A stretch of DNA of 64,000 nt from Planctomycetota bacterium (GTDB taxonomy: Bacteria > Planctomycetota > MHYJ01 > JACPRB01). The number at the start of each line of letters is the position of its first letter. Position 1 is the first letter of the stretch. Made by a program: the position numbers and the translations under genes. The stretch is taken from NCBI GenBank assembly GCA_016209705.1, contig JACQVR010000065.1, positions 965 to 64,964 of the forward strand, written 5' to 3'. The notes beneath the pieces are model-generated. The model saw only the letters and a program-made list of their open reading frames with translations, was not told the DNA's origin and searched no databases. Of this stretch, positions 30,508 through 42,271 are shown piece by piece.

Positions 30508-30658
30508 CGCGTCCTCGGCCGTTCTCGAACTATGTATGGGGTGTTTCGTGACGTCACCGGCCCTTGTCGGGTGCGTCATCATGAAAGATGAACATCGGGA
30601 TTCCAGCAACGCACGTGCCATCCGCGAGGACCCTTGCGGAGGGCGCCTGAATCGGCTT

Positions 30659-30699
30659 GGAGGCGGAATTTTTCCGAGGCGGAGGCGGAATTTTCCCGA
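30659..30699. repeat. Tandem direct repeat GGAGGCGGAATTTTTCCGA / GGAGGCGGAATTTTCCCGA
   Basis: Read directly; located between dynamin-like gene stop and next gene start on minus strand. Confidence 0.6.
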
Positions 30700-30720: not shown

Positions 30721-32073
30721 CTAAGGCGAATGCTTCAGCTCGCGGTGCAACTGGGCGCGGAGCGCCGGAATCTCCGTCTCGACGGCCCCGGCCAGCCGGT
30801 CGCGCTCCTCGGCTCGAAGCTTGGGAAAAGCCCGGACGCCCACCTTTTCGAGCGCGTGCCGCAGATGGGGGTGGACCTTGCCCCACAGAGCGCGCAGGTC
30901 CTCCACCCGGTCCCGCACCAGCAGTTCGCGGGCGTAGAGGCGCTCGAAGATATCGCTCAGACCGGCGACGATCTGCCTTTCCGAACCGCGGATCAGGCCG
31001 CGGATGACGAACGAGCCCGCATAGGCGACCAGCGCCGCGCCGCCGAAGATGACGGCCGGGATCCACCACTCCTGATGCGTGGTGATCGTGATCGCGCCCG
31101 CCAGCCCGGCGAAGAGAATGAGGAAGACGAGAAGCGTCCAGAGCTTCGCTCCGAAACGGCGCAGGTTGCGCCGCGCTTCATCGATGACCCGCGCGTGCAC
31201 GTAAAGCCGCTGCGCGTGCTCTTCGAGCTGCGTGATGAGATTGTCGATCCGTCGGGCGGGCGCGCGTCGGACCTCCCGGATCAGCTCCTCCCGCGTCCCT
31301 TCGAAATCCCGCGCGGGAAGCGCCGGCGGCGCCGCTCCGTCCACCGGAAGATAGGTCGTGAAGATGTGCGGAAGGTCCTTCCGGGGGATGATCTTCCCCA
31401 GGTTCCAGCAGAGCGATCCGTAGGCCCGCGCGAAATCCTGGAGGCTTTCGAAGCGGTCCATCTTGTTCATCACGATGAGCAGCTTGTGATCGATCCCGCG
31501 CAGCGACTGCGTGAAAACCTGGAGCGTCTCGCCCGTCGTGCCCGGCTTTTCGGCGTCGAAAAACACGAACACCACGTCGGCGCGTTCGGCGAACCAGCGG
31601 ACCGCGCCGGCGAAGTCGTAGCCGCGGTCAGATCCTTCTCCCCGCGCGTCGATCATGCCGGGGGAGTCGATCAACGTCACCTCCCGCAGGACCTCCGTCG
31701 AGCGAAGCTTGACGCGGAAGTGGGACAGGAATTCGGGGCCGAAGCTCTTCAAGTCGCCGAACGGGAGCGTCGGATCGGAGACGGCCGCCTGGCCTTCGCG
31801 GTCCTCTTCGGCGCCGTTCATGAGGACGGTGAACGTGTCGTCGGTGGGAGCGAGCCCCGTCTTCTGCACCGGAGCGGCCAGAAGGTGGTTGATGAACGTC
31901 GACTTGCCCGACGAATGATTGCCCAGGAACAGCACGGTCGGCGCGCCCGCGATTTCGCTTTCCCCGGGGCGCCGTTCGAAGGCGAACCTCTCCTCGAGAG
32001 GATCGATGGCTTCGCCGTAGATGCGCTGGACGGCCAGCGCGATGTCGCTCAGCGTCCGTTGCACGGCGCCCAT
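30721..32073 (-). CDS. Dynamin-family (bacterial dynamin-like) GTPase with C-terminal membrane hairpin
   Basis: G1 GNHSSGKST, G3 LIDSPGM, G4 VMNKMD; TM segment LLVFLILFAGLAGAITITT...AVIFGGAALVAYAGSFVI. Confidence 0.7.
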   Translation of the reverse strand: MGAVQRTLSDIALAVQRIYGEAIDPLEERFAFERRPGESEIAGAPTVLFLGNHSSGKSTFINHLLAAPVQKTGLAPTDDTFTVLMNGAEEDREGQAAVSDPTLPFGDLKSFGPEFLSHFRVKLRSTEVLREVTLIDSPGMIDARGEGSDRGYDFAGAVRWFAERADVVFVFFDAEKPGTTGETLQVFTQSLRGIDHKLLIVMNKMDRFESLQDFARAYGSLCWNLGKIIPRKDLPHIFTTYLPVDGAAPPALPARDFEGTREELIREVRRAPARRIDNLITQLEEHAQRLYVHARVIDEARRNLRRFGAKLWTLLVFLILFAGLAGAITITTHQEWWIPAVIFGGAALVAYAGSFVIRGLIRGSERQIVAGLSDIFERLYARELLVRDRVEDLRALWGKVHPHLRHALEKVGVRAFPKLRAEERDRLAGAVETEIPALRAQLHRELKHSP

Positions 32074-32126
32074 TGTACTCGCCCGCGGCGGATCGGGAAC
32101 CGGAATTCGGGGCGCGGGCCTCCGGA

Positions 32127-32864
32127 CTATGGATCATGGACTTCCGGCGGAAGCGGTGGCGTCGGGGAGGTTTCCTTGTCGGGAACGCTGGCGCCATCGA
32201 GAGGAGCCGCGGGCGCTTCCCGTGGCGAAGCGCGAATCCCGCGCCACACCAGGATGGCCAGAAGCGCCGCCGCCGCGCCGTAACCGATCGCCCGGAACCA
32301 CGCGGTGTGACGTACCGGCTCCAGGAGTCGCGCCAGCCCCTCGGCGCCCAGCGCCAAGCCGAAACTGCCGGCGACCGCGCCGATCGCGATGGCGGTCAGG
32401 ATCCGCGCCGACGTCAGTCCGATGAGCCGCCCGAAGATCGTCCCGCCGATGGCGCCCGTGCCGGTGAGCGGAAACATGACGAACAGGATCACCCCGAAAA
32501 ACGCGGAACGGCGATAGAACCGCCGCCGTTCCAGAGTTTCCCGCCCGTTCCGTTCCATCCATCGCAGGCGCCGTCCGAGCCACGGGAGGCGGTACAGCAC
32601 ATCCAGGTGCAGCGCGACGAGCAACGCGGTGCAGACGTCCATGAACGCGACCATTCCGGCGAAGAAGAACGGCGTGAAGAAGACGTCTTCGCGAAGGACG
32701 GGCGCCAGCACGATAAACTTTCCCGCCGCGACGAACGTCACGCCGGCATATCCCATCGCCTCCAGCGCCAGCGTCCAGGACGTGAATCCCACCAGCACCA
32801 CGATCGCCGCCGAGGCGACCGCGAACGGTGCCAGCGTCAGCGCGAGTTTCCAGCTACGCATCAT
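32127..32864 (-). CDS. Polytopic membrane protein (hypothetical), translationally coupled (ATGA) to the last antiporter subunit gene
   Basis: Hydrophobic 245-aa product begins MMRSWKLALTLAPFAVASAAIVVLV; lies within the C-terminal part of a rejected long R/G-rich ORF. Confidence 0.45.
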   Translation of the reverse strand: MMRSWKLALTLAPFAVASAAIVVLVGFTSWTLALEAMGYAGVTFVAAGKFIVLAPVLREDVFFTPFFFAGMVAFMDVCTALLVALHLDVLYRLPWLGRRLRWMERNGRETLERRRFYRRSAFFGVILFVMFPLTGTGAIGGTIFGRLIGLTSARILTAIAIGAVAGSFGLALGAEGLARLLEPVRHTAWFRAIGYGAAAALLAILVWRGIRASPREAPAAPLDGASVPDKETSPTPPLPPEVHDP

Positions 32865-34537
32865 CCGAGCCGCCCGTTCAACGCCAGGACGAAACCGGTC
32901 AAGATCAGCATCGCTCCCAGAAGAACGGCCGCCTGGAAGCCCACGGTGGCCGGCATCTCCGATTCCCGCCATCGCCGCCACCCGTGCCGAAAGGCCGCTC
33001 CGGACCGCTCGGACATGGGCGCGAACGCTTCGAGCGTCCGGCCCAGCGCCTCGAGGAGCGCGCCGGTCGGCCGCCGATAGAGCCGGTCCACGTCGCGCGT
33101 CACCGTTGGCTCTCCCCCCAGCTTCGCGCGCAGCAGCCAGAATCCCAAGGCCGTTCCCAGCAGGAGCTGGATCGCCGCCATTATATGTTCCGCCGTGAAC
33201 GGTTCGTAGAAAGCCGCGTGCGGGAGCATCGCGTAGAGCACCTCCGGACTCACTCCGGTCGTCACGCACACCGCCGCCGCCAAGACCATCGCCGCGATCA
33301 TCGAGGCGGGAGCGTCGCGCCGCCGCGCGGGCGCGGGAGCGCCGCCGAAAAAGGTGAACCACGGAAGCTTCAGCCCCGTGTGGAGAAACGTTCCCATGGA
33401 CGCGATTTCCAGCAGCAGCTCTCCGGTCCAGCGCCCCTCGGCGCCGGCCGCGCCGACGATCATCGACTTGCTGACGAATCCGCTGAACAGCGGCACGCCG
33501 GAAATGGAAAACGCGCCGACCGCGTAGCAGGCGAGCGTCACGGGCATCCAGCGTCCCAGGCCTCCCAGCTCCGTGAGCTTCGCGCGTCCGGTCGCGTGAA
33601 TCACCGCTCCCGCGGCCATCAGCAAGAGTCCTTTGTAGAAGATGTGGGAGAAGGCGTGCGCCGCCGTGCCGTTCAGCGCCAGCGCCGTGCCCAGGCCGAC
33701 GCCGCACACCATGTAGCCGACCTGGCTGATGATGTGATATCCCAGCAGCCGCCGGATGTCGTTCTCGAGCACGGCGAAGATGACTCCGTACAGCGCCATC
33801 GCGATGCCGGCTCCCACCAGGAACTCTTCGCCGGGGAAGCACCGGGCGAGCGCATAGACCGCCGCCTTCGTGGTGTAGGCGCTCAGGAAGACGGTCCCCG
33901 CCGGGGTGGAGCGCGGATAAGCGTCCGGCAACCAGGCATGCAGCGGCGGGATCGCCGCGTTGACCGCCATCCCCGCCAGGATCAGCCAGCCCGCCGCGCC
34001 GCGCAGGCCGATTGCCTCGATCGCCGTGGATCCCGACTCGTGCGCATGCAGCAGTACGCCCGCCAGCAGGCAAGCCGCTCCCGCGACATGGAAATAAAGA
34101 TAGCGCAGCCCGGCGGCCAGCGCCGTGCGCGTCCCGCCGGACCAGATAAGGAACAGCGATCCGAGAGTGAGCCCCTCCCAAAACAGGAACAGGGCCAGGA
34201 AATCGCCGGCCAGCGCCGCGCCCACGCCCGAGCCCGCCAGTCCCAGGCCGGCCGCCCGCACGGCCGTCCTCTCTTCGCGCCAGGCATAGACGGCCGCGAC
34301 GCACGCGAAGCCCGCGAACGCCAGCGCGAAAAGGCGGGCGAGCGCGTCCACGCGCAGAAACACGAGCTCGAATCCCAGAACCTCGATGCCCCATCGCGTC
34401 CCCTCCGGGACGAGAAGCACCAGGATCGTTCCTCCCAGCGGGGCGAGGAGCGACAGCGCCCGCTGCGCCGGCGCGCTCACGAAGGGAAGGAGCGCCGCGG
34501 CCAGCAGGAACGGCATCACCGGATGAAGCTCAATCAT
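32861..34537 (-). CDS. NuoL/MrpA-N-domain-like proton-pumping antiporter subunit (558 aa)
   Basis: Complex I L/M/N family membrane pattern; stop overlaps downstream start. Confidence 0.7.
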   Translation of the reverse strand: MIELHPVMPFLLAAALLPFVSAPAQRALSLLAPLGGTILVLLVPEGTRWGIEVLGFELVFLRVDALARLFALAFAGFACVAAVYAWREERTAVRAAGLGLAGSGVGAALAGDFLALFLFWEGLTLGSLFLIWSGGTRTALAAGLRYLYFHVAGAACLLAGVLLHAHESGSTAIEAIGLRGAAGWLILAGMAVNAAIPPLHAWLPDAYPRSTPAGTVFLSAYTTKAAVYALARCFPGEEFLVGAGIAMALYGVIFAVLENDIRRLLGYHIISQVGYMVCGVGLGTALALNGTAAHAFSHIFYKGLLLMAAGAVIHATGRAKLTELGGLGRWMPVTLACYAVGAFSISGVPLFSGFVSKSMIVGAAGAEGRWTGELLLEIASMGTFLHTGLKLPWFTFFGGAPAPARRRDAPASMIAAMVLAAAVCVTTGVSPEVLYAMLPHAAFYEPFTAEHIMAAIQLLLGTALGFWLLRAKLGGEPTVTRDVDRLYRRPTGALLEALGRTLEAFAPMSERSGAAFRHGWRRWRESEMPATVGFQAAVLLGAMLILTGFVLALNGRLG

Positions 34538-34727
34538 CGTCGCCCTCTTCCGGCTTCTGGAGGAACGCGCGGCCGGCGGCTTTCGTCAGGAGCACGACCG
34601 CGACGCACGATGCGAATCCCAGCACCGCATAAAGCGACGGCGCGTGATGGGAGCGCACGAACAAGAGCTCGGCGATGACGGCGAGCCCCGACGCGCCGGC
34701 GAGGATCCACGCGAATCGGTCCCTCAT
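34530..34727 (-). CDS. Small 2-TM membrane protein inside antiporter operon
   Basis: MRDRFAWILAGASGLAVIAELLFV...; ATGA overlap with upstream gene stop. Confidence 0.5.
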   Translation of the reverse strand: MRDRFAWILAGASGLAVIAELLFVRSHHAPSLYAVLGFASCVAVVLLTKAAGRAFLQKPEEGDDD

Positions 34728-36190
34728 GGCGCGCCTCCGAAAATCTGGGCCGCGGCCCGCGCGGCCAGTTCGTACTGGAGGTTGATGACGGCGGGAAGCG
34801 CGCCGAAGACGACCACCAGCGCGGACGTCGCCACCAGCGGTCCCACCATGAGCCCGGGCGCCTCGCGGACGGCGTCATTGGGAGCTGGATCGAAGTACGC
34901 GGCGCGCACGATGGGCAGCAGGTAGGCCGCGGTGAACAGGGATCCACCCAGGAGGATCGCCAAGGGGACCATCTGCGACGCTTCGATCGCGCCGCGCGCC
35001 AGAATGAGCTTGCCCACGAAGCCGCACAAGCCGGGGAAGCCCACCAGCGCCAGCGACGCGACGGTGAACGCGGCGAACGTCCACGGCATGTGCCGGCCGA
35101 GCCCGCCGAGCCGGCTCACGGTTTCCGCGTGCGTGCTCGCGTAGATGGCTCCCGCGCAGAAGAACAGCGTGATCTTCGCGAATCCGTGGTTGACCATGTG
35201 CAGCATCGCGCCCACCGTGCCGTGGGGCGCCAGGAGCGCCGCGCCGAGCACGATCAGCGAAAGGTGCACGACCGTCGAGTAGGCGAGCCGGCGCTTCAGG
35301 TTGTCCTGGCGCAGCGCCGCGATCGATCCGGCGACGACGGTGACGCCGCACGCGGCGATGAGGACCGCCGGCGCGGCCGAGGACGAGAGCGTGTCGGGGC
35401 CGAACACGTATTGGACCATGCGCAGGCATCCGAAGACGCCCGCCTTCACCACCGCGACGGCGTGGAGCAGCGCGCTCACCGGCGTCGGCGCCACCATCGC
35501 GCCCGGCAGCCAGGCATGAAGCGGCATCACCGCCGCCTTGACCCCGTAGCCGATCGCGTAGAGCGCGAAGAGCCCCGCGAGCGCGCCGCCCGCCAGGCGC
35601 GGGGGAAGAAATCCTCCGGGAACGAAATCGAGCGTCCCCGCCAGCATCCACGTCCATGCCGCCGCCGCGGTCAGCGCCAATCCTCCGGTGAGCGCATAGG
35701 CGAGATAGCGCCGCGCGCCGGCCAGGGCCGCGTCCGTCTCCTTGTGCGCCACGAGCGGGTACGTCGCGAGGGTGAGTCCTTCATAGAAGACCAGAAAGGT
35801 GAGAACGTTCCCGGCGAACGCCACGCCCAGCGCGCAGCCGATCGACGCCGCGAAGCACGCGAAGTAGCGACGCCGGTTTTCCAGGCCCATCGCGCGCACG
35901 TAGCCGGAGGAGTAGACGGACGTGACGACCCATAGACCGGCCGCCAGCAACGCGAACGTCAGGCCGAGAGGATCGACCCGGAAGAAGAGATCGACGCCGG
36001 GAAGGAGCCCCATGAGCCGGACTTCCGGAGCGACGCCGGCACGCACCGCCGGCAGCAAGGCGAGCGCCAGCGCCAGCGAGACGCCCGCCGCGGCGTACGT
36101 CCACGCTTCCGCCCCGCGGCGACGTCCCAGATAGATCGCGGCCGCCGCGGCGAACGGTGCCGCCATCGCGCCCAGCACTCTCGGGTCCAT
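34724..36190 (-). CDS. MrpD/NuoN-like antiporter subunit (second copy)
   Basis: Start ATG at 36190 two nt after upstream TAG; NuoL/M/N-family TM pattern (GLWVVTSVYSSGY, MPLHAWLPGAM). The ORF-track upstream extension to 37441 is an R/G-rich artefact. Confidence 0.7.
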   Translation of the reverse strand: MDPRVLGAMAAPFAAAAAIYLGRRRGAEAWTYAAAGVSLALALALLPAVRAGVAPEVRLMGLLPGVDLFFRVDPLGLTFALLAAGLWVVTSVYSSGYVRAMGLENRRRYFACFAASIGCALGVAFAGNVLTFLVFYEGLTLATYPLVAHKETDAALAGARRYLAYALTGGLALTAAAAWTWMLAGTLDFVPGGFLPPRLAGGALAGLFALYAIGYGVKAAVMPLHAWLPGAMVAPTPVSALLHAVAVVKAGVFGCLRMVQYVFGPDTLSSSAAPAVLIAACGVTVVAGSIAALRQDNLKRRLAYSTVVHLSLIVLGAALLAPHGTVGAMLHMVNHGFAKITLFFCAGAIYASTHAETVSRLGGLGRHMPWTFAAFTVASLALVGFPGLCGFVGKLILARGAIEASQMVPLAILLGGSLFTAAYLLPIVRAAYFDPAPNDAVREAPGLMVGPLVATSALVVVFGALPAVINLQYELAARAAAQIFGGAP

Positions 36191-36192
36191 GA

Positions 36193-37659
36193 CTAAACAC
36201 CTCCCGGGATCGCCGCGCGAACGAGGAGCGCCACCACGCGATCGCTGCCCAGCCCCAGCGCCGCCACGCCCCCGCCCAGAAGCGCGCACGCGGCGACCAG
36301 GCCGGCGGGACCCTCGCGCTCCGGGCAGGCTTCGCCGGAACGCGCGAAGTAGAGCCGCTCCACGATGCGGAAGGCATAGAACGCGCTCGCCAAGCTCCCG
36401 GCGACGATCGCGAAAGCCATTCCCGGTCGGCCCGACTCCAGTGCGCCCATCAGGACGTACCATTTCCCGAAGAAGCCGCACAAAGGCGGCAGACCCACGA
36501 GCGAGAAGGCGGCCACGGCCATCGCGGCGGCCGTCCAGGGCGCGCGCGCCCGCACGCGCGCCAGGTCGCCCACCTCGCGCACGCCGAAGCGGTGCGCCAG
36601 CTCGGCCGCGCCCACGAAGAGCGTCGCCTTCATCAGCGCGTCGTTCGCGAGGTGGAGGATCGCGCCCGTCAGCGCCGCCGCGTTGGCCAGACCGATCCCG
36701 AGGACCACCAGACCCATCTGCGAGACGCTCGAGTAGGCCAGCAGCCGGCGCAGATCGGCCTCGCGCGCCGCCAGCAGCGCGCCGGCGATCAACGCGACCG
36801 CTCCCGTCACGCAGAGCAGATCGGCCACGATCGGCGCGCGCCCCAGCCCCGCGGGGCCGTAGACCCAGAACAGGATGCGGATGAGCGCGTAGGCGGAAAC
36901 CTTCGTGACCAGCGGCGCCATGAGCGCCGCGGCCGATAACGGCGCCCGCGCGTAGGCCCCCGGCATCCAGCCGTGCAGGGGAAAGAGCCCCATCTTGATG
37001 GCCAGTCCGCTGATCATGAACGCCAACGCCAGGATCGTCAGGCGCGGATCGGCCCCGGCCGCGATCCGGGCCGCGGCATCGTCCATGTTCAGCGTGCCCG
37101 TGGCCGCGTACACATGACCCACGCCCAGGAGGTACAAGGAGGCGCCCAAGCTGCCGATCACCAGGTACCGCACCGCCGCGCGCGGAGCCCCGCGCCCCCC
37201 GGAGGCCACGAGCGCGTACGCGCTGAGCGAGGCCACTTCGAGGTGAACGAAGAGATTGAAAAGGTCGGCGGAGGCGATCATGCCCATCAGTCCGCTGACC
37301 AGGAGCAGCGCGCAGGTGTTGAATCCGGGCTCGCGCTCGCCGAGCTCCCGCCGCCGCACGTCGCCCAGGGCGCCGTGCACGATCAGCGCCGTCGCCGCCA
37401 CGAACGCGGCCACGAACGCGCTCAGCGCGTCCAACCTCCACTCGATGCCCAGCGGAGGCGCCCAGCCGCCCATATGGGTGACGAGCCGTTCGCCCGCCGC
37501 CGCGAGCGCCGCGCCGGCGAAGGACAGCGCCGCCGTCGCCGCCAGCGCGCCCAGCGCGATCCAGCGCGCCGCGCCCCGCAGGTATCCCCCCAGCGCGCCG
37601 CAGAGGAGCGCGCTCAAGAACGGGACGAGGAACAGGAGGGCCGGCAGGGTGGAGTTCAT
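36193..37659 (-). CDS. mrpD: MrpD/NuoM-like antiporter subunit
   Basis: LFPLHGWMPGAYARAP, multiple TM helices; ATGA coupling to mrpC. Confidence 0.75.
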   Translation of the reverse strand: MNSTLPALLFLVPFLSALLCGALGGYLRGAARWIALGALAATAALSFAGAALAAAGERLVTHMGGWAPPLGIEWRLDALSAFVAAFVAATALIVHGALGDVRRRELGEREPGFNTCALLLVSGLMGMIASADLFNLFVHLEVASLSAYALVASGGRGAPRAAVRYLVIGSLGASLYLLGVGHVYAATGTLNMDDAAARIAAGADPRLTILALAFMISGLAIKMGLFPLHGWMPGAYARAPLSAAALMAPLVTKVSAYALIRILFWVYGPAGLGRAPIVADLLCVTGAVALIAGALLAAREADLRRLLAYSSVSQMGLVVLGIGLANAAALTGAILHLANDALMKATLFVGAAELAHRFGVREVGDLARVRARAPWTAAAMAVAAFSLVGLPPLCGFFGKWYVLMGALESGRPGMAFAIVAGSLASAFYAFRIVERLYFARSGEACPEREGPAGLVAACALLGGGVAALGLGSDRVVALLVRAAIPGGV

Positions 37660-38012
37660 GGTTCCTCCTCCGGCCGGCGCCGCTCCACGATCGATCCTTC
37701 CTCCTCCTGAAGCCGGCGCAGGATCGCCAGCGCCACGCCCAGCGTCGAGACCGCCACCACGATGGCCGTCAACATCAGGGCGTGCGGCAGGGGATTGTTC
37801 AGCGGGCGATCGTCGCCCTCCGCCAGGATAGGCACCGTGGCGCCGTCGCGCACGGCCAGCAGCACGAAGAAGAGGATGATGCCCGACTGCGCGAGCGACA
37901 GGCCGACGATCGTCTTGAATAGATTCTGATGCGTCAGCACGAGGTACAGTCCCAGCATCACCAGGGCGGCATACGGCAGGTACGGTCCGCGCGCGAAGAG
38001 ATAATCGATCAC
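37656..38012 (-). CDS. mrpC: MrpC/NuoK-like small antiporter subunit
   Basis: GTG start at 38012 overlapping upstream TGA; 3 TM ~118 aa. Confidence 0.65.
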   Translation of the reverse strand: MIDYLFARGPYLPYAALVMLGLYLVLTHQNLFKTIVGLSLAQSGIILFFVLLAVRDGATVPILAEGDDRPLNNPLPHALMLTAIVVAVSTLGVALAILRRLQEEEGSIVERRRPEEEP

Positions 38013-38452
38013 GGCGAGACCTCCTTGTCGCCGGCGAGGCTCTGGAAGAGCGAAACCATGACGCCCGCCACCGCCAGCGCCACGCTCGCTTCGACGATGA
38101 GAATGCCCACCCAGCGCCGTTGCGCCGGTTCCAGCGACGGCAAGGGAAGCGCGGCGTAGTCGAGCATCGGCCGGCCGGCCAGCAAGGGGATGGCGGCGAG
38201 CGTCGCGTACGCCAACACGCCCGCCGCGGCCAGTGCCGCCGAGCCGCGCTGGGACAGCATGAGAGACGGAGTCGCGCGCCCGTGCACGAGCATCATCAGG
38301 ATCATCGACGCGCCCAGCAGCACGCCCCCTTGGAAGCCGCCGCCCGGGCTCGTGTGCCCGTGAAAGACCACGTACAGCGCGAAGATCTGGAGGCACGCCA
38401 CGAGCGGGCCCAGGAGGACGCGCAGCATCAGGCTGTCGAAGGGCGCCGTCAT
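38009..38452 (-). CDS. mrpB: MrpB/MnhB antiporter subunit
   Basis: Signature HGHTSPGGGFQGG. Confidence 0.75.
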   Translation of the reverse strand: MTAPFDSLMLRVLLGPLVACLQIFALYVVFHGHTSPGGGFQGGVLLGASMILMMLVHGRATPSLMLSQRGSAALAAAGVLAYATLAAIPLLAGRPMLDYAALPLPSLEPAQRRWVGILIVEASVALAVAGVMVSLFQSLAGDKEVSP

Positions 38453-38976
38453 GGCTTCCTCCCCAGGAGCAGGATGCAGGCCATCGCGGCGGTCAAGATC
38501 ACCGTCGTTTCGATGAGCGTGTCGAAGCTGCGGTAGTCCGCCAGCACGGCGGTCACGACGTTCGGGGTGGCCGTGTCCTGAAGCGCGCGTTCGATATACG
38601 CCGGCGCCACGTGGCGGGTCGGCGCGGACTGGGGATCGCCGAAGGGCGGCAGCGCGTCGATGCCCCAGAGCAGCACGAAGCCGATCGCCCCGACGCCGGC
38701 CAGCGCCGCCGCGCGGGCCAATGGACCCTGGCGGACGACTTCCCGCGGATCGATGCGGCGCAGCAGCGTCATCAGAAGGACCGTCGAGATGCTCGCGCCG
38801 ACGACCGCTTCGGTGAACGCGACGTCGACCGCACCGAGAACCGCCAGGAGCACGGCGATCAGGCCGCTGAACGCCGACAGAAGCGCCATCGTCGCGAAGA
38901 GGTCCCGCACGCGGATGAGCGCGATTCCCAGCGCCACCAGCATGACGCTCAGCAACCCGCCGATATAGGGATTCAT
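38449..38976 (-). CDS. MnhB-related/DUF4040-type membrane subunit (MrpA C-terminal-domain-like, MbhD/E-like)
   Basis: DYRSFDTLIETTVILTA motif; start MNPYIGGLL at 38976 overlapping mrpG stop. Confidence 0.6.
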   Translation of the reverse strand: MNPYIGGLLSVMLVALGIALIRVRDLFATMALLSAFSGLIAVLLAVLGAVDVAFTEAVVGASISTVLLMTLLRRIDPREVVRQGPLARAAALAGVGAIGFVLLWGIDALPPFGDPQSAPTRHVAPAYIERALQDTATPNVVTAVLADYRSFDTLIETTVILTAAMACILLLGRKP

Positions 38977-39287
38977 GATTTCACCTTCGGCGGCGCCCAG
39001 GGAGCATGTCCTGCTTCCATCGCCGCCCGCGCGAGCATGTGGCCCACCAGCGGGCACGTCAGATAAAGAAATCCGATGGCCAGAAGCAGCTTGAACGCCG
39101 TCAGCGAGAAGCCCAGATGGAACGCGGCGCCCAAGAGCACGAGCGGGCCGCCCAGCGTGTCGGTGACCCCCACCACGTGAAGCCGGCAGTAAAGGTCGGG
39201 AAAGCGCACCAAGCCCACGCTGGCCACGAGCTGGAAGAAGAGTCCCGTCGCGAAGAGCCCCGTGCCGATCATCTCCATCGCCGTCAT
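38973..39287 (-). CDS. mrpG: MrpG/MnhG antiporter subunit
   Basis: ~104 aa 3 TM; RLHVVGVTDTLGGPL motif. Confidence 0.65.
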   Translation of the reverse strand: MTAMEMIGTGLFATGLFFQLVASVGLVRFPDLYCRLHVVGVTDTLGGPLVLLGAAFHLGFSLTAFKLLLAIGFLYLTCPLVGHMLARAAMEAGHAPWAPPKVKS

Positions 39288-39550
39288 AGCCCGCCTCTCT
39301 CTTTCACGTACTTGGCCAGCAGCAGCGTCGTCACCAGGTTCAGCAGATAAAACGCCAGCGCGATGTCCACGAACATGTCCGCGCGCGCATAGAGCAGCCC
39401 CACCAGGACCATGAGCACCGCGATTTTCGTTCCGATGCCGTTGAGCGCGACCACGCGGTCGAAGACGGTGGGGCCCGCGATCACGCGTCCCAGGTAAGGG
39501 ATCGCCAGGATGAGCGTCGCCACAGTGGCCGCCAGGAAGACGTGCGTCAT
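39284..39550 (-). CDS. mrpF: MrpF/MnhF antiporter subunit
   Basis: ~88 aa two-TM product MTHVFLAATVATLILAIPYL...; ATGA overlap with mrpE stop. Confidence 0.6.
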   Translation of the reverse strand: MTHVFLAATVATLILAIPYLGRVIAGPTVFDRVVALNGIGTKIAVLMVLVGLLYARADMFVDIALAFYLLNLVTTLLLAKYVKERGGL

Positions 39551-40032
39551 GGGCCGCCTCCCCGAAAGACGCCGCCGACGCGGCGCACGACGTCGCCCGT
39601 CTCGATCTCGCGAGCGGAAACCGGGTCCAGAGCGTGCACCGTCATGAGGTCCGGAGCGATGTCCAGCGTCACGGTGCCGGGCGTCAACGTGATGGAGCAC
39701 CCCGCCAGCGTGAGGGCGCGCTCATCGGAGAGGCTGGGCACGGCGCGCACCACGCGCGGCGCCAGGGAAGCGCGCGGGGCGAGCGCCAACCGCGCCACCC
39801 GGAGGTTGGACTTGAGCACTTGCCAGAGCAGCCAGGGCACATAACCCGCGAAGCGTCCCAGCGGGAAACGCTCGTCCGTGCGCGGGCGGGCCAGGAACGC
39901 GACTCCCAGCGCCGCCGCTCCCCCGGCGCCCAGGTGAAGGACGTCCATCTTGCCCGATAGCAGAATCCAGATCCCCCAGAGGAAGCCGGCGATGGTCAGG
40001 AACCGAAGCAAGCGCATGGTCTTTCCTTTCAT
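39547..40032 (-). CDS. mrpE: MrpE/MnhE antiporter subunit
   Basis: LTLAGCSITLTPGTVTLDIAPD motif typical of MrpE; start MKGKTMRLL. Confidence 0.65.
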   Translation of the reverse strand: MKGKTMRLLRFLTIAGFLWGIWILLSGKMDVLHLGAGGAAALGVAFLARPRTDERFPLGRFAGYVPWLLWQVLKSNLRVARLALAPRASLAPRVVRAVPSLSDERALTLAGCSITLTPGTVTLDIAPDLMTVHALDPVSAREIETGDVVRRVGGVFRGGGP

Positions 40033-40036
40033 GGAA

Positions 40037-40861
40037 TCATTCGATGGCTTCCAGGAATGAAAGCGTGGAATTGTCGCGGACCACCCAGACGGGGAGCGGC
40101 GAGGAAAGCACGACGCGTTCCGCAACGCTTCCGAACAGCAGCGTGACAGCGGGGGACCGCCGGCGCGAACCGAGCACGATCTGCCCGTAGCGGCCGGTCC
40201 GCGCTTCGCGGAGAATCGTGGAGGCGGCGTGGCCGCCCAGGAGCGCGCGGCACCGCACCGGGCGGTCCGTCCCGAGCTCGGCGCGGAAGACGGCGAGATC
40301 GCGCCGGACGCGCGCCTCCATGCTCCGCGCGAACTCGGCATAGCTCGGGCCGAGCTTGTGATAGCCGGTGGGCACTTCGAAGACGTGCAGCAGGTCCATC
40401 GGCCTCTCTTCAGCCGCCGCCAGGCGGGCCGCGAAGCGAGCCGCGCGCATCGAGTCGGGTCCGAAATCGATCGGAACGAGCAGCGGCCCGCGCGGAGCGG
40501 AAGCGCCGGGAGGAAGCGTCAGGATCGAGCACGCGGCGCGGCGCAGCAGCCGCTGGGTCAGCATGCCCGATTCGGCGGTGACGATCAGGTCGCAATCGCA
40601 GGCCTGTTCCAGCGCCCCTTCGACGGGATCCCCGGCTCGCGCCACGAAGCACACGCGGGCCCACGTGGCCGACCACACCAGGCGCTCCCAGGCGCCGTCC
40701 GGAGATTCGGACATCCGCGCCGCGTGCAGGACGGTGAGGTGCTCGCAGGCGAAGCGCCGCTCGAGATCCAAGGCCGCGTTCAGCACGGACTCGCGCGTCC
40801 GCGGCTCGGTGACGAGCGCCAGGATCGTCCGCGTCGGAACTCCGGCCTTCGCATCACGCAT
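40037..40861 (-). CDS. Universal stress protein, tandem UspA domains
   Basis: RTILALVTEP... and GPLLVPIDFGPDS...LGSVAERVVLSSPLPVWVV USP motifs. Confidence 0.7.
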   Translation of the reverse strand: MRDAKAGVPTRTILALVTEPRTRESVLNAALDLERRFACEHLTVLHAARMSESPDGAWERLVWSATWARVCFVARAGDPVEGALEQACDCDLIVTAESGMLTQRLLRRAACSILTLPPGASAPRGPLLVPIDFGPDSMRAARFAARLAAAEERPMDLLHVFEVPTGYHKLGPSYAEFARSMEARVRRDLAVFRAELGTDRPVRCRALLGGHAASTILREARTGRYGQIVLGSRRRSPAVTLLFGSVAERVVLSSPLPVWVVRDNSTLSFLEAIE

Positions 40862-40874
40862 CGCCGGAGGTAGG

Positions 40875-40890
40875 TGCAAGCGGCGTGCCA
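40875..40890 (-). promoter_or_regulatory. Sigma-54 promoter (minus strand) TGGCACG-CCGC-TTGCA, consensus-perfect, immediately upstream of usp-mrp operon and downstream of sigma-54 activator gene
   Basis: Plus-strand tgcaagcggcgtgcca = reverse complement TGGCACGCCGCTTGCA; predicted TSS ~40864 makes the usp mRNA nearly leaderless. Confidence 0.5.
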
Positions 40891-40918
40891 CGCGCGCGGG
40901 ATGCTTGGAAGCTATATC

Positions 40919-42271
40919 TTAATCGGATCCACGGAGCTTGCGGTAGAGCGTGGCGCGGTCGATCTCCAGCATCCGCGCCGCTCGCGCCTTGTTGCGGCCG
41001 ACGTGTTGATAAACCCACGCGACGTAGTCACGGACGTGCTGAGCCAGTGGCTTGATCTCGATGGGCGGCATGGCCGCGCCGCCGGTCGCTGCGCGCGCCG
41101 GAAGCAGGAGGCCCGTGAGATCGGCGATTTCGATCCGGCCGCCGCCGGGTTTCATGGCGACCAGGCGCTGGAGGACGTTTTCAAGCTCGCGCACGTTGCC
41201 GGGCCAGGAGTGGGCCATCAGGACCTCCAGGACGCCCGTCGCGAAACCCGCGGCGGGGCGGCCGCTCTCGCGGGCCAGACCGCGCAGGATGTGTTCGCAC
41301 AGCAGCGGGAGATCCGCCAGGCGCGCCCGCAGCGGAGGCAAGTAGATCGGGAAGACATGGATGCGATAGAACAGATCCTCGCGAAACCGTCCGGCGTGGA
41401 CTTCGCTCATGAGATCGCGATTGGTCGCGGTGATGAGCCGGAAGTCGACGCGGGTGGGCCGCGAGGATCCGACGCGGTGGATCGTCTTGTCCTGTAGCAC
41501 GCGCAGGAGCTTCACTTGCGTCGCCAGAGGCAGCTCGCCGATCTCATCGAGAAAGAGCGTCCCGCCGTGGGCCGCTTCGATGAATCCGACGCGCTCGGCG
41601 CCGGCGCCGGTGAACGCGCCGCGCACGTACCCGAAGAGCTCGCTTTCCAGCAGGCTGTCGGGAATCGACGCCGGATGCACGGCGACGAAGGGCGCCTCCC
41701 GCCGCGGCGACGAACGATGAATGGCGCGGGCGACGAGCTCCTTGCCGGTCCCGCTTTCGCCGTAGAGGGCCGCGGGCACGCTCGTGCTCGCCGCGCGCGA
41801 GATGAGGCGGTAGACGTTCCGCATCTCCTCGCTGATGCCGATGAGTCCGGGGAAAAGCTCCTGGGAGGCGAGGTCATCGCGCCCCGCGGACAGCTCGCGC
41901 AATCGCCGGACCTCGCGCACGTGTTCGATCAGGAATTGCACGTGCTCGGCCCGCACCGGCTGGACGATGAACCCTTCCACCCCGCACTTGATCGCCTCCC
42001 GGTCGTGCTCCCGAAGCTGCCGGTCGGTGACGACGAGCAGCGAGAGGTCCGGATACGCGTGACGCAAACCCAGCACGAGATCGATTCCCCGGCTCGATTC
42101 GATCGCCAAGTCGATGATCGCCGCGTCGAACAAGGCGGTCTCCAGGATCTTCTGCGCCTCGTTCAGATTCATGGCGACCGATACTGTGATTCCCTCGACG
42201 GCCTCCGCGGCCGTCCGGATCCTGCCGGATAAGGCTTGCCCCGCCGCGACCAAGACCCGGAAAATGTTCAT
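40919..42271 (-). CDS. Sigma-54-dependent transcriptional activator (NtrC family; atypical receiver, AAA+, HTH)
   Basis: [29 protein letters not shown]-terminal [18 protein letters not shown]. Confidence 0.85.

Follow-up and report, generated by a model that had tools for sequence, protein, structure and literature searches.

We analyzed a region of twelve genes on the minus strand (positions 30721-40032) of a 64,000-nt stretch of DNA from a Planctomycetota bacterium, called the window in the following. This region probably encodes a stand-alone cation/proton antiporter of the Mrp type (CPA3), group 3, that is driven by the proton-motive force and of which the two genes at the downstream end are not conserved components. 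The ten genes of the antiporter are a member of a known, widespread and already annotated form of group 3 Mrp with the gene order EFG-B-B′-C-D1-D2-x-D3.

The gene model was rebuilt from the list of open reading frames (ORFs), taking account of in-frame start codons and the sequence ahead of them, and it was checked against Pfam and NCBIfam. All twelve genes point in the same direction. The first three encode MrpE (MbhA-like, 161 amino acids (aa), 39547-40032; PF01899 MNHE, 99.6 bits), MrpF (MbhB-like, 88 aa, 39284-39550; PF04066 MrpF_PhaF) and MrpG (MbhC-like, 104 aa, 38973-39287; PF03334 PhaG_MnhG, 83.7 bits). They are followed by the genes for an MbhD+MbhE-like protein (DUF4040; the "MrpB" of group 3, 175 aa, 38449-38976; PF13244 and PF20501, with NF009159 reaching 147 bits against a cut-off of 141), for a subunit with an MnhB domain (MrpB′ or MbhF-like, 147 aa, 38009-38452; PF04039, 86.8 bits) and for MrpC (NuoK-like, 118 aa, 37656-38012; PF00420 Oxidored_q2, 66.6 bits), which begins with a GTG start codon. 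The unit then continues with two antiporter-like genes of 488 aa each, D1 of the MrpD/MbhH/MbsH type (36193-37659; PF00361 Proton_antipo_M, 185 bits) and the NuoL/MrpA/NuoM-like D2 (34724-36190; PF00361 at 174 bits, besides a weak match to Proton_antipo_N), and with a small ORF of 65 aa and two helices (34530-34727), for which no Pfam or NCBIfam model scored above its cut-off. It ends with D3, the terminal antiporter-like gene of 558 aa (32861-34537; Proton_antipo_M, and NF009310 with 636 bits against a cut-off of 564). The Pfam gathering scores were exceeded by MNHE, MrpF_PhaF, PhaG_MnhG, MbhD+MbhE, MnhB, Oxidored_q2 and by all three Proton_antipo_M matches.

At seven of the nine junctions inside this ten-gene unit the genes overlap by 4 nt; the small ORF and D3 share 8 nt, and 2 nt lie between D1 and D2. 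Downstream of D3 follow a gene for a polytopic protein of 245 aa (32127-32864; PF06695 Sm_multidrug_ex, 48.8 bits against a gathering cut-off of 30.7), named "small multi-drug export protein" at NCBI, and, after a gap of 53 nt, a gene for a dynamin-family nucleoside triphosphatase (NTPase) of 450 aa (30721-32073; Dynamin_N, 50 bits). Entries identical to the NTPase (MBI4564714.1), the 245-aa protein (MBI4564715.1) and D3 (MBI4564716.1) come from a Planctomycetota metagenome-assembled genome. An earlier note, made from the letters of this DNA, had given the same gene order on the minus strand and had described an ATGA link from D3 to the polytopic gene; the order was correct in every particular, and the junction is a genuine ATGA overlap.

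Group 3 Mrp systems are defined by the lack of mrpA and the presence of one or more mrpD genes (PMC8415708, PMC5703873). In the window there is no fused full-length mrpA; the antiporter-like genes encode 488, 488 and 558 aa, and the C-terminal domain of MrpA is present as the separate gene of 175 aa. Arrangements of this kind have been listed before, the two-D form as "MrpEFGBBCDD" for the Solemya velum symbiont (PMC4287430) and the three-D form as "Mnh/MrpEFGBCD1D2D3" in Verruconatronum alginivorum (PMC13274419), while Ca. Nitrospira alkalitolerans has a group 3 cluster with two NuoM/NuoL-like genes behind it, which were read as extra mrpA/mrpD-like genes (PMC7784846). The window cluster is not an orphan respiratory arm, because its order is that of group 3 Mrp in the literature and its three-D version is already annotated. 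The observation that the genes follow an Mbh-like order and not mrpABCDEFG, with three antiporter subunits, thus stands, but it does not point to an Mbh-type energy-converting arm, as had been suggested in the earlier note, since this very order defines group 3 Mrp.

The unit is conserved well beyond the Planctomycetota. With a profile of D3 homologs we fetched 80 loci from species-representative genomes and mapped the window proteins on them by tblastn. Homologs of E, F, G, B, C, D1, D2 and D3 were all found within 7 kb in 48 of the 80 loci, and 39 of these 48 kept the gene order of the window. The 48 loci include members of the Gemmatimonadota, Acidobacteriota, Myxococcota, Planctomycetota, Nitrospirota, Methylomirabilia, Chloroflexota, Bacillota, Desulfobacterota and Methanocellaceae. 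The closest D3 homolog (65% identity), on an unclassified metagenome contig (L123), belongs to a cluster of the same ten genes with near-equal sizes, and the sizes in the window match the independent gene call on that contig. We also compared the flanks of the 48 loci, comprising 84 downstream and 89 upstream ORFs (173 altogether), with Pfam. The commonest families there were universal stress proteins (Usp), sensor kinase, PAS and receiver domains, further Proton_antipo_M proteins (in a Desulfobacterota variant described below) and sigma-54 activators.

Among solved structures, the best relatives of D1 are MbsH (6u8y_H, 198 bits), MbhH (6cfw_H) and MrpD (7qru_D). D2 matches NuoL best (8e9g_L, 136 bits), its nearest set being NuoL, MbsH and MrpA, and the nearest relative of D3 by sequence is MbsH′. 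The AlphaFold (AF2) model of D3, with a mean confidence (pLDDT) of 83, shows a 14-helix core followed by a transmembrane (TM) helix, TM15, at residues 449-472, a long kinked helix of low confidence at 483-525, which resembles a lateral helix, and a C-terminal TM helix at 530-557. Its top whole-length fold matches are MrpA (7QRU_A with a TMq of 0.79, 6Z16_A with 0.78) and NuoL chains. The MbhD/E-like protein also matches the C-terminal parts of MrpA models in NCBIfam. D3 hence corresponds to TM1-16 of MrpA and the MbhD/E-like protein to TM17-21, and MrpA is split in this cluster, not missing. D1 and D2 have the complete set of Glu-TM5, Lys-TM7, Lys-TM8 and Lys-TM12, and D3 keeps Glu-TM5, Lys-TM8, His/Lys-TM11 and Lys-TM12. 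At the position of the TM7 lysine, D3 has Asn193 (codon 33959-33961, minus strand) within the motif xxN-A-A-I-P-P-L-H-A-W-L-P-D-A.

The D2-small-D3 module is also found outside of Mrp clusters. In a locus from the Nitrosomonadales (L041, 3231-14853) the order is nuoG-H-I-J-K-[D2][small][D3]-nuoM-nuoN, so that the module replaces nuoL in a complex I operon, and in five further loci (L028, L039, L053, L089 and L090; Betaproteobacteria/Gallionellales) the module is followed by NuoM/N-like tblastn matches and is not preceded by mrpEFG. The same module occurs in the "green complex I" (Degli Esposti & Martinez-Romero 2016, Chadwick et al. 2018), in which, according to PMC9040806, a pair of MrpD-like subunits takes the place of NuoL, with a lateral helix on the second of them. 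There the module belongs to an NADH:quinone oxidoreductase, whereas in the window it extends an Mrp antiporter, with no nuo genes. The arrangements in L041 and in the green complex I support a distal position of D3 with D2 adjacent to it.

In eight loci from Desulfobacterota (L034, L037, L048, L051, L052, L059, L074 and L078) the order is E-B-F-G-MbhD-MbhE-C-D1-D2-(small)-D3. Six of them, and three partial loci, have a fourth antiporter-like gene next, which encodes a D3 paralog with ~42% identity and also carries the Asn. The window D3 is 60-65% identical to the copies from L123, Polyangiaceae, Gemmatimonadota, Vicinamibacterales and Longimicrobiales, and 47-55% identical to those of other Planctomycetaceae. 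The G+C content of the cluster, 0.68-0.72, lies above the ~0.60-0.66 found over most of the window. These affinities of D3 and the raised G+C hint at a lateral transfer of the cluster.

Of the small subunits, MrpF keeps D31, R32 and D62 in alignments to 6cfw_B, 6z16_F and 6u8y_B, and MrpG keeps D31 and R35 in alignments to 6z16_G, 7qru_G and 6u8y_C. MrpF has Asn37 (codon 39440-39442, minus strand) where MbhB, the MrpF of A. flavithermus and MbsB have Asp. A small ORF between D2 and D3 is present in 61 of 66 loci, mostly with a shared motif (in most loci ...FPWHxVPGF..GC..SKxLGxxWLQRxEDYYD) and two hydrophobic helices. When the 65-aa protein was searched on its own against 1.8 billion representatives, only 14 matches came up, the copy in the window being too short and too divergent for such a search; the conservation of this ORF is therefore shown by its position in the locus. 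We conclude that the 65-aa ORF encodes a conserved two-helix subunit and that the window carries a divergent form of it.

Compared with Verruconatronum alginivorum (PMC13274419) and Ca. Nitrospira alkalitolerans (PMC7784846), the window has the same subunits in the same order, with three terminal MrpD/MrpA-like genes, stand-alone and without a fused mrpA. It differs from both in the Sm_multidrug_ex gene at the end of the operon, followed by the NTPase gene, and in the Usp and sigma-54 activator genes upstream. The first seven genes are in identical order to mrpEFGBB′CD of Pyrococcus furiosus (PMC8415708), with MrpB as an MbhD+MbhE fusion and MrpB′ as an MbhF-like protein, but the P. furiosus Mrp has one antiporter-like subunit and no MrpA-type module, and the window adds D2, the small subunit and D3. 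All domain types of the canonical group 1/2 Mrp (6Z16, 7QRU, 7D3U) are present as well: D3 aligns with TM1-16 of MrpA (TMq 0.78-0.79), D1 resembles MrpD, and the DR motif of MrpF and the D/R motif of MrpG are kept. Against this canonical form, the parts of MrpA are divided between D3 and the MbhD/E-like protein, D2 and the 65-aa subunit are extra, Asn stands for the TM7 Lys in D3, and Asn stands for one Asp in MrpF. The MBH and MBS complexes of Thermococcales (6CFW, 6U8Y) mirror E-F-G-B-B′-C-D in their order A-B-C-D-E-(F)-G-H, with D1 nearest to MbsH and D3 nearest to MbsH′; the window lacks the MbhJ-N or MbsJ-N module of these complexes and has three antiporter-like subunits where they have one or two.

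From these comparisons we infer the arrangement and stoichiometry of the subunits and the transported cation, as well as, further below, promoter use and co-transcription. MrpE, MrpF, MrpG and the subunit with the MnhB domain would form the cation-translocating end, and the MbhD/E-like protein and MrpC would provide a small connecting proton path. D1 (MrpD-like), D2 and D3 would then form a row of three pump modules, giving the overall arrangement E/F/G/B′ - (B, C) - D1 - D2 - D3. D3, as the distal MrpA(TM1-16)/NuoL-like module, might, jointly with the 65-aa subunit, clamp this row through its lateral helix and the TM helix at its end. With one module more than the two of canonical Mrp, such an antiporter could move more H+ per cation and might thus export cations, or capture protons, at a lower driving force.

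Several points weigh against this picture of a stand-alone antiporter of the ordinary kind. Its antiport activity, cation and stoichiometry are assumptions drawn from homologous systems, and the published D1-D2-x-D3 cases are genome annotations. The part of the D3 model that would form the lateral helix is of low confidence (pLDDT about 50-57). The TM7 lysine is considered a key residue for coupling in both complex I and Mrp, and D3, with its invariant Asn193 at this place, may pump differently from a canonical module. With Asn37, MrpF is without one Asp of the presumed cation cavity, and the transported ion could differ. Finally, the ATGA overlap with D3 and the lack of a terminator before the NTPase gene make co-transcription, and a local functional link in this organism, possible.

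The two residue differences lead to the alternative that we consider the most serious one, possible although on balance doubtful, namely that the D1-D2-x-D3 clusters are a distinct subclass of CPA3 with another ion, direction or stoichiometry, brought about by the Asn of D3 and the loss of the MrpF Asp. Both differences are general features of the type. Asn occupies the TM7 position in all 92 D3-type sequences from the 80 loci, including the copies embedded in nuo operons, against Lys in the aligned MbsH′, MrpD and MrpA chains; position 37 of MrpF is N, G, S, C or A in 51 cluster homologs and Asp in none of them, and in MbsB the corresponding D36 is part of a proposed cation cavity (PMC8165549). 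The conserved extra 65-aa subunit, without a counterpart in Pfam or NCBIfam, would also fit a separate subclass. However, the remaining residues of the pump and cation paths are all kept, the effect of the two differences is a predicted one, and genome papers treat such clusters as ordinary Na+/H+ antiporters in salt or alkali adaptation (PMC13274419, PMC7784846).

The two genes downstream of the antiporter were searched for in the wider data set. The earlier note had regarded both as coupled to the antiporter. Homologs of the NTPase or of the 245-aa protein were found within 10 kb at none of the 80 Mrp loci, and L123, the closest cluster, has neither gene. Conversely, none of six long contigs with NTPase homologs (51-72% identity; Planctomycetota, Myxococcales and Opitutales) has Mrp genes within 10 kb, and the neighbors of these six homologs have no homolog anywhere in the window. 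A comparison of synteny between these neighborhoods and the window, meant to reveal an insertion, thus found no shared neighbor genes and gave no direction for a rearrangement.

For the Sm_multidrug_ex protein, one comparable case exists. In the locus L011 a homolog with 50% identity (P0128) follows the D2-small-D3 module with a 4-nt overlap, and the gene behind it encodes an FG-GAP protein. Among four looked-up contexts and 30 metagenome loci, L011 is the only other one in which an Sm_multidrug_ex gene overlaps D3. The closest homolog of the 245-aa protein (70% identity, L122) is preceded by an ORF whose C-terminal tail, judged by eye, is MscS-like and unlike the C-terminus of D3, and two further homologs (39% and 59% identity) have no Mrp genes nearby. 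The 30 metagenome loci with Sm_multidrug_ex homologs (33-52% identity) were also devoid of Mrp genes, with about ten of them holding at least 2 kb of upstream sequence. In a neighbor-joining tree of D3, the window and L011 form adjacent deep branches; because of this adjacency, the Sm_multidrug_ex gene may have joined the operon once, in a small clade. We conclude that the operon gained the 245-aa gene in this lineage and that the NTPase gene is a neighbor only here, neither of them being a conserved component of the antiporter. The proposed coupling is, hence, not a conserved one.

The NTPase belongs to a large family with a uniform length of ~450 aa, in the alignment of which the motifs GNHSSGKS, DSPG and NKMD (G1-G4) are invariant or nearly so. 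Over 97% of its length it shares 55% identity with MCA9558847.1 (P0105; E = 4e-148), which the preprint defining the MfnL family names "MbMfnL". This family is characterized by a G domain and two adjacent TM helices, includes TbMfnL of Trypanosoma brucei and has homologs in PVC bacteria and Proteobacteria (bioRxiv 10.1101/2023.06.28.546890). The membrane hairpin ascribed to the protein in the earlier note is borne out by two adjoining hydrophobic segments at residues 304-334 and 337-361 (hydropathy) and by long helices at 271-331 and 337-370 in the AF2 model (pLDDT 86). The only significant matches among solved structures were the eukaryotic proteins EHD2 and EHD4 (phmmer, E = 5e-45, residues 10-306), with 34% identity over 286 aligned residues. 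A Foldseek search with the model likewise ranked EHD4 far ahead (E = 8e-21, TM-scores of 0.63/0.73); the bacterial dynamin-like protein BDLP followed with 1.6e-9 and a TM-score of 0.37, and IniA and mitofusins scored similarly to BDLP. No match to an EH domain was found in the NTPase, the C-terminal third of which consists of the TM hairpin and helices.

We thus assign the NTPase to the bacterial MfnL proteins, as an EHD-like member of the dynamin superfamily that would hydrolyze ATP or GTP. With MfnL it shares the G domain, the helical region, the two adjacent TM helices and the C-terminal helical tail; unlike TbMfnL, and like other bacterial members, it has no mitochondrial targeting sequence. 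The resemblance to EHD2 and EHD4 (2QPT, 5MTV) extends from the N-terminal helix through the G domain into the beginning of the helical domain, but the TM hairpin and helical tail stand in place of the EH domain. A similarity to EHD proteins is not mentioned in the MfnL preprint (bioRxiv 10.1101/2023.06.28.546890). A role in anti-phage defense as in Eleos (LeoA/LeoBC) was considered and rejected, as a PADLOC scan gave P-loop-level matches only (15.5 and 13.6 bits).

Upstream of mrpE, on the same strand, lies a gene for a Usp of the tandem type (40037-40861; Pfam Usp, 94.4 bits), which ends 4 nt before mrpE. Next to it is a gene for an NtrC-type, sigma-54-dependent response regulator of 450 aa (40919-42271; Pfam Sigma54_activat, 223.6 bits, Response_reg and HTH_8). 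In the gap between the activator stop and the Usp start we detected an exact sigma-54 -24/-12 consensus, TGGCACgccgcTTGC (40876-40890), 28 nt past the activator stop and 14 nt before the in-frame ATG at 40861; the start of Usp would be at 40891 if the promoter match were ignored. A second exact consensus on this strand, TGGCACgtgcgTTGC (30606-30620), is located 100 nt past the NTPase stop and ahead of an ORF of 148/135 aa, and an independent gene call starts this ORF downstream of the site. Exact matches to TGGCAC-N5-TTGC thus occur twice in the window against 0.17 expected, both times intergenic and on the minus strand. Downstream of the NTPase gene lie the ORF of 148 aa and a gene for a hemerythrin/CMD protein.

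The NtrC-type regulator is likely the activator of the operon downstream of it. The Usp-Mrp unit would then be expressed, probably through this adjacent regulator, from the sigma-54 promoter just upstream of Usp. The two sites suggest one sigma-54 unit that starts with Usp and a separate one that starts past the NTPase gene, so that the second site would set the downstream limit of the region; they are compatible with a single transcript from Usp to the NTPase, without proving it. In the flanks of the 48 loci, Usp is the most frequent neighbor (10 upstream and 5 downstream ORFs), and sigma-54 activators occur three times. Usp together with a sigma-54 activator may be a recurrent regulatory theme of this Mrp type. 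Two copies of a direct repeat, GGAAAA(A)TTCCGCCTCC, are located at ~30659-30696 on the minus strand, in the gap after the NTPase gene and some 40-90 nt ahead of the second sigma-54 site, and could be an activator-binding site.

This arrangement raises the alternative that Usp, Mrp, Sm_multidrug_ex and NTPase are co-transcribed as a membrane or ion-stress regulon in which the NTPase acts with the antiporter or on the surrounding membrane. We consider this unlikely. The co-directional genes, the ATGA overlap of D3 and Sm_multidrug_ex with its counterpart in the distant L011, and the short distance of 53 nt to the NTPase gene speak for it, as do the absence of a terminator-like site in this gap and the position of the next exact sigma-54 site beyond the NTPase gene. 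The same gene order was found again for the organism in a second sample; coming from the same organism, it is not independent evidence. A scan for a terminator or a sigma-70 promoter between the 245-aa gene and the NTPase gene was uninformative: it gave no promoter-like sites, and its six terminator-like sites all fall within ORFs and are fewer than in shuffled sequences. Sites resembling the sigma-54 consensus with two mismatches upstream of the NTPase gene (32182-32196 and 32232-32246) were rejected, being at chance level (52 found against 56 expected). The genomic contexts stand against such a regulon: none of the six NTPase homologs has Mrp genes or synteny with the window, the 80 Mrp loci and L123 are without the two genes as described above, the 70% identical Sm_multidrug_ex homolog follows an ORF with a C-terminus that does not match that of D3, the 30 metagenome loci, about ten of them with at least 2 kb of upstream sequence, have no Mrp, and in L011 the FG-GAP gene, and no NTPase gene, follows Sm_multidrug_ex. 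An extended form of this idea, which we regard as a long shot, is that the sigma-54/Usp operon of this lineage has recruited Sm_multidrug_ex and an MfnL/EHD-like NTPase, the latter acting on the membrane domain in which a three-pump Mrp resides, itself lacking the TM7 Lys in its distal pump.

Coming back to the stand-alone antiporter, Mrp systems belong to the secondary transporters and draw on the proton-motive force. The absence of a redox partner is therefore not a gap, and the "unknown redox or energy partner" of the earlier note is not required. The same note's statement that hydrogenase or Nuo catalytic subunits are lacking was correct: no genes of the NuoB/C/D/H/I or MbhJ-N type were found in the operon or its immediate neighbors by Pfam and NCBIfam. 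Among the 25 most frequent flank families on each side of the 48 loci, there was no NiFe-hydrogenase, NuoB/C/D/H/I or formate dehydrogenase either. We hence rejected a hidden redox partner as a conserved neighbor, based on the 173 flanking ORFs and the most frequent families listed for them. A role of the cluster as membrane arm in a redox-driven Mbh/Mbs/complex-I-like complex, the catalytic module of which would be encoded elsewhere in the genome, is very improbable: the gene order and best sequence matches of the cluster do lead to MBH/MBS subunits, and D2-small-D3 does occur inside true complex I operons of Nitrosomonadales and Gallionellales, but those versions have contiguous nuo genes (L041) where the partners here are E, F and G, neither the operon nor the listed flank families contain a catalytic gene, and D3, as an MrpA-type TM1-16 with lateral helix, fills the site of the redox module's partner in MBH/MBS (PMC8415708).

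The window thus adds one more example of a common and annotated antiporter type, and the suspected link between antiporter and dynamin is removed. The D1-D2-x-D3 form of Mrp is widespread, has a module in common with the "green" complex I and contains a conserved small subunit that is as yet unnamed. The invariant Asn of D3 provides a natural variant for testing models of the pump. The closeness of the bacterial MfnL protein to the eukaryotic EHD ATPases is relevant to how that eukaryotic family arose. If the NTPase had indeed been recruited to the operon, this would be the first functional link of a bacterial EHD/MfnL-type protein to an ion-transport complex.

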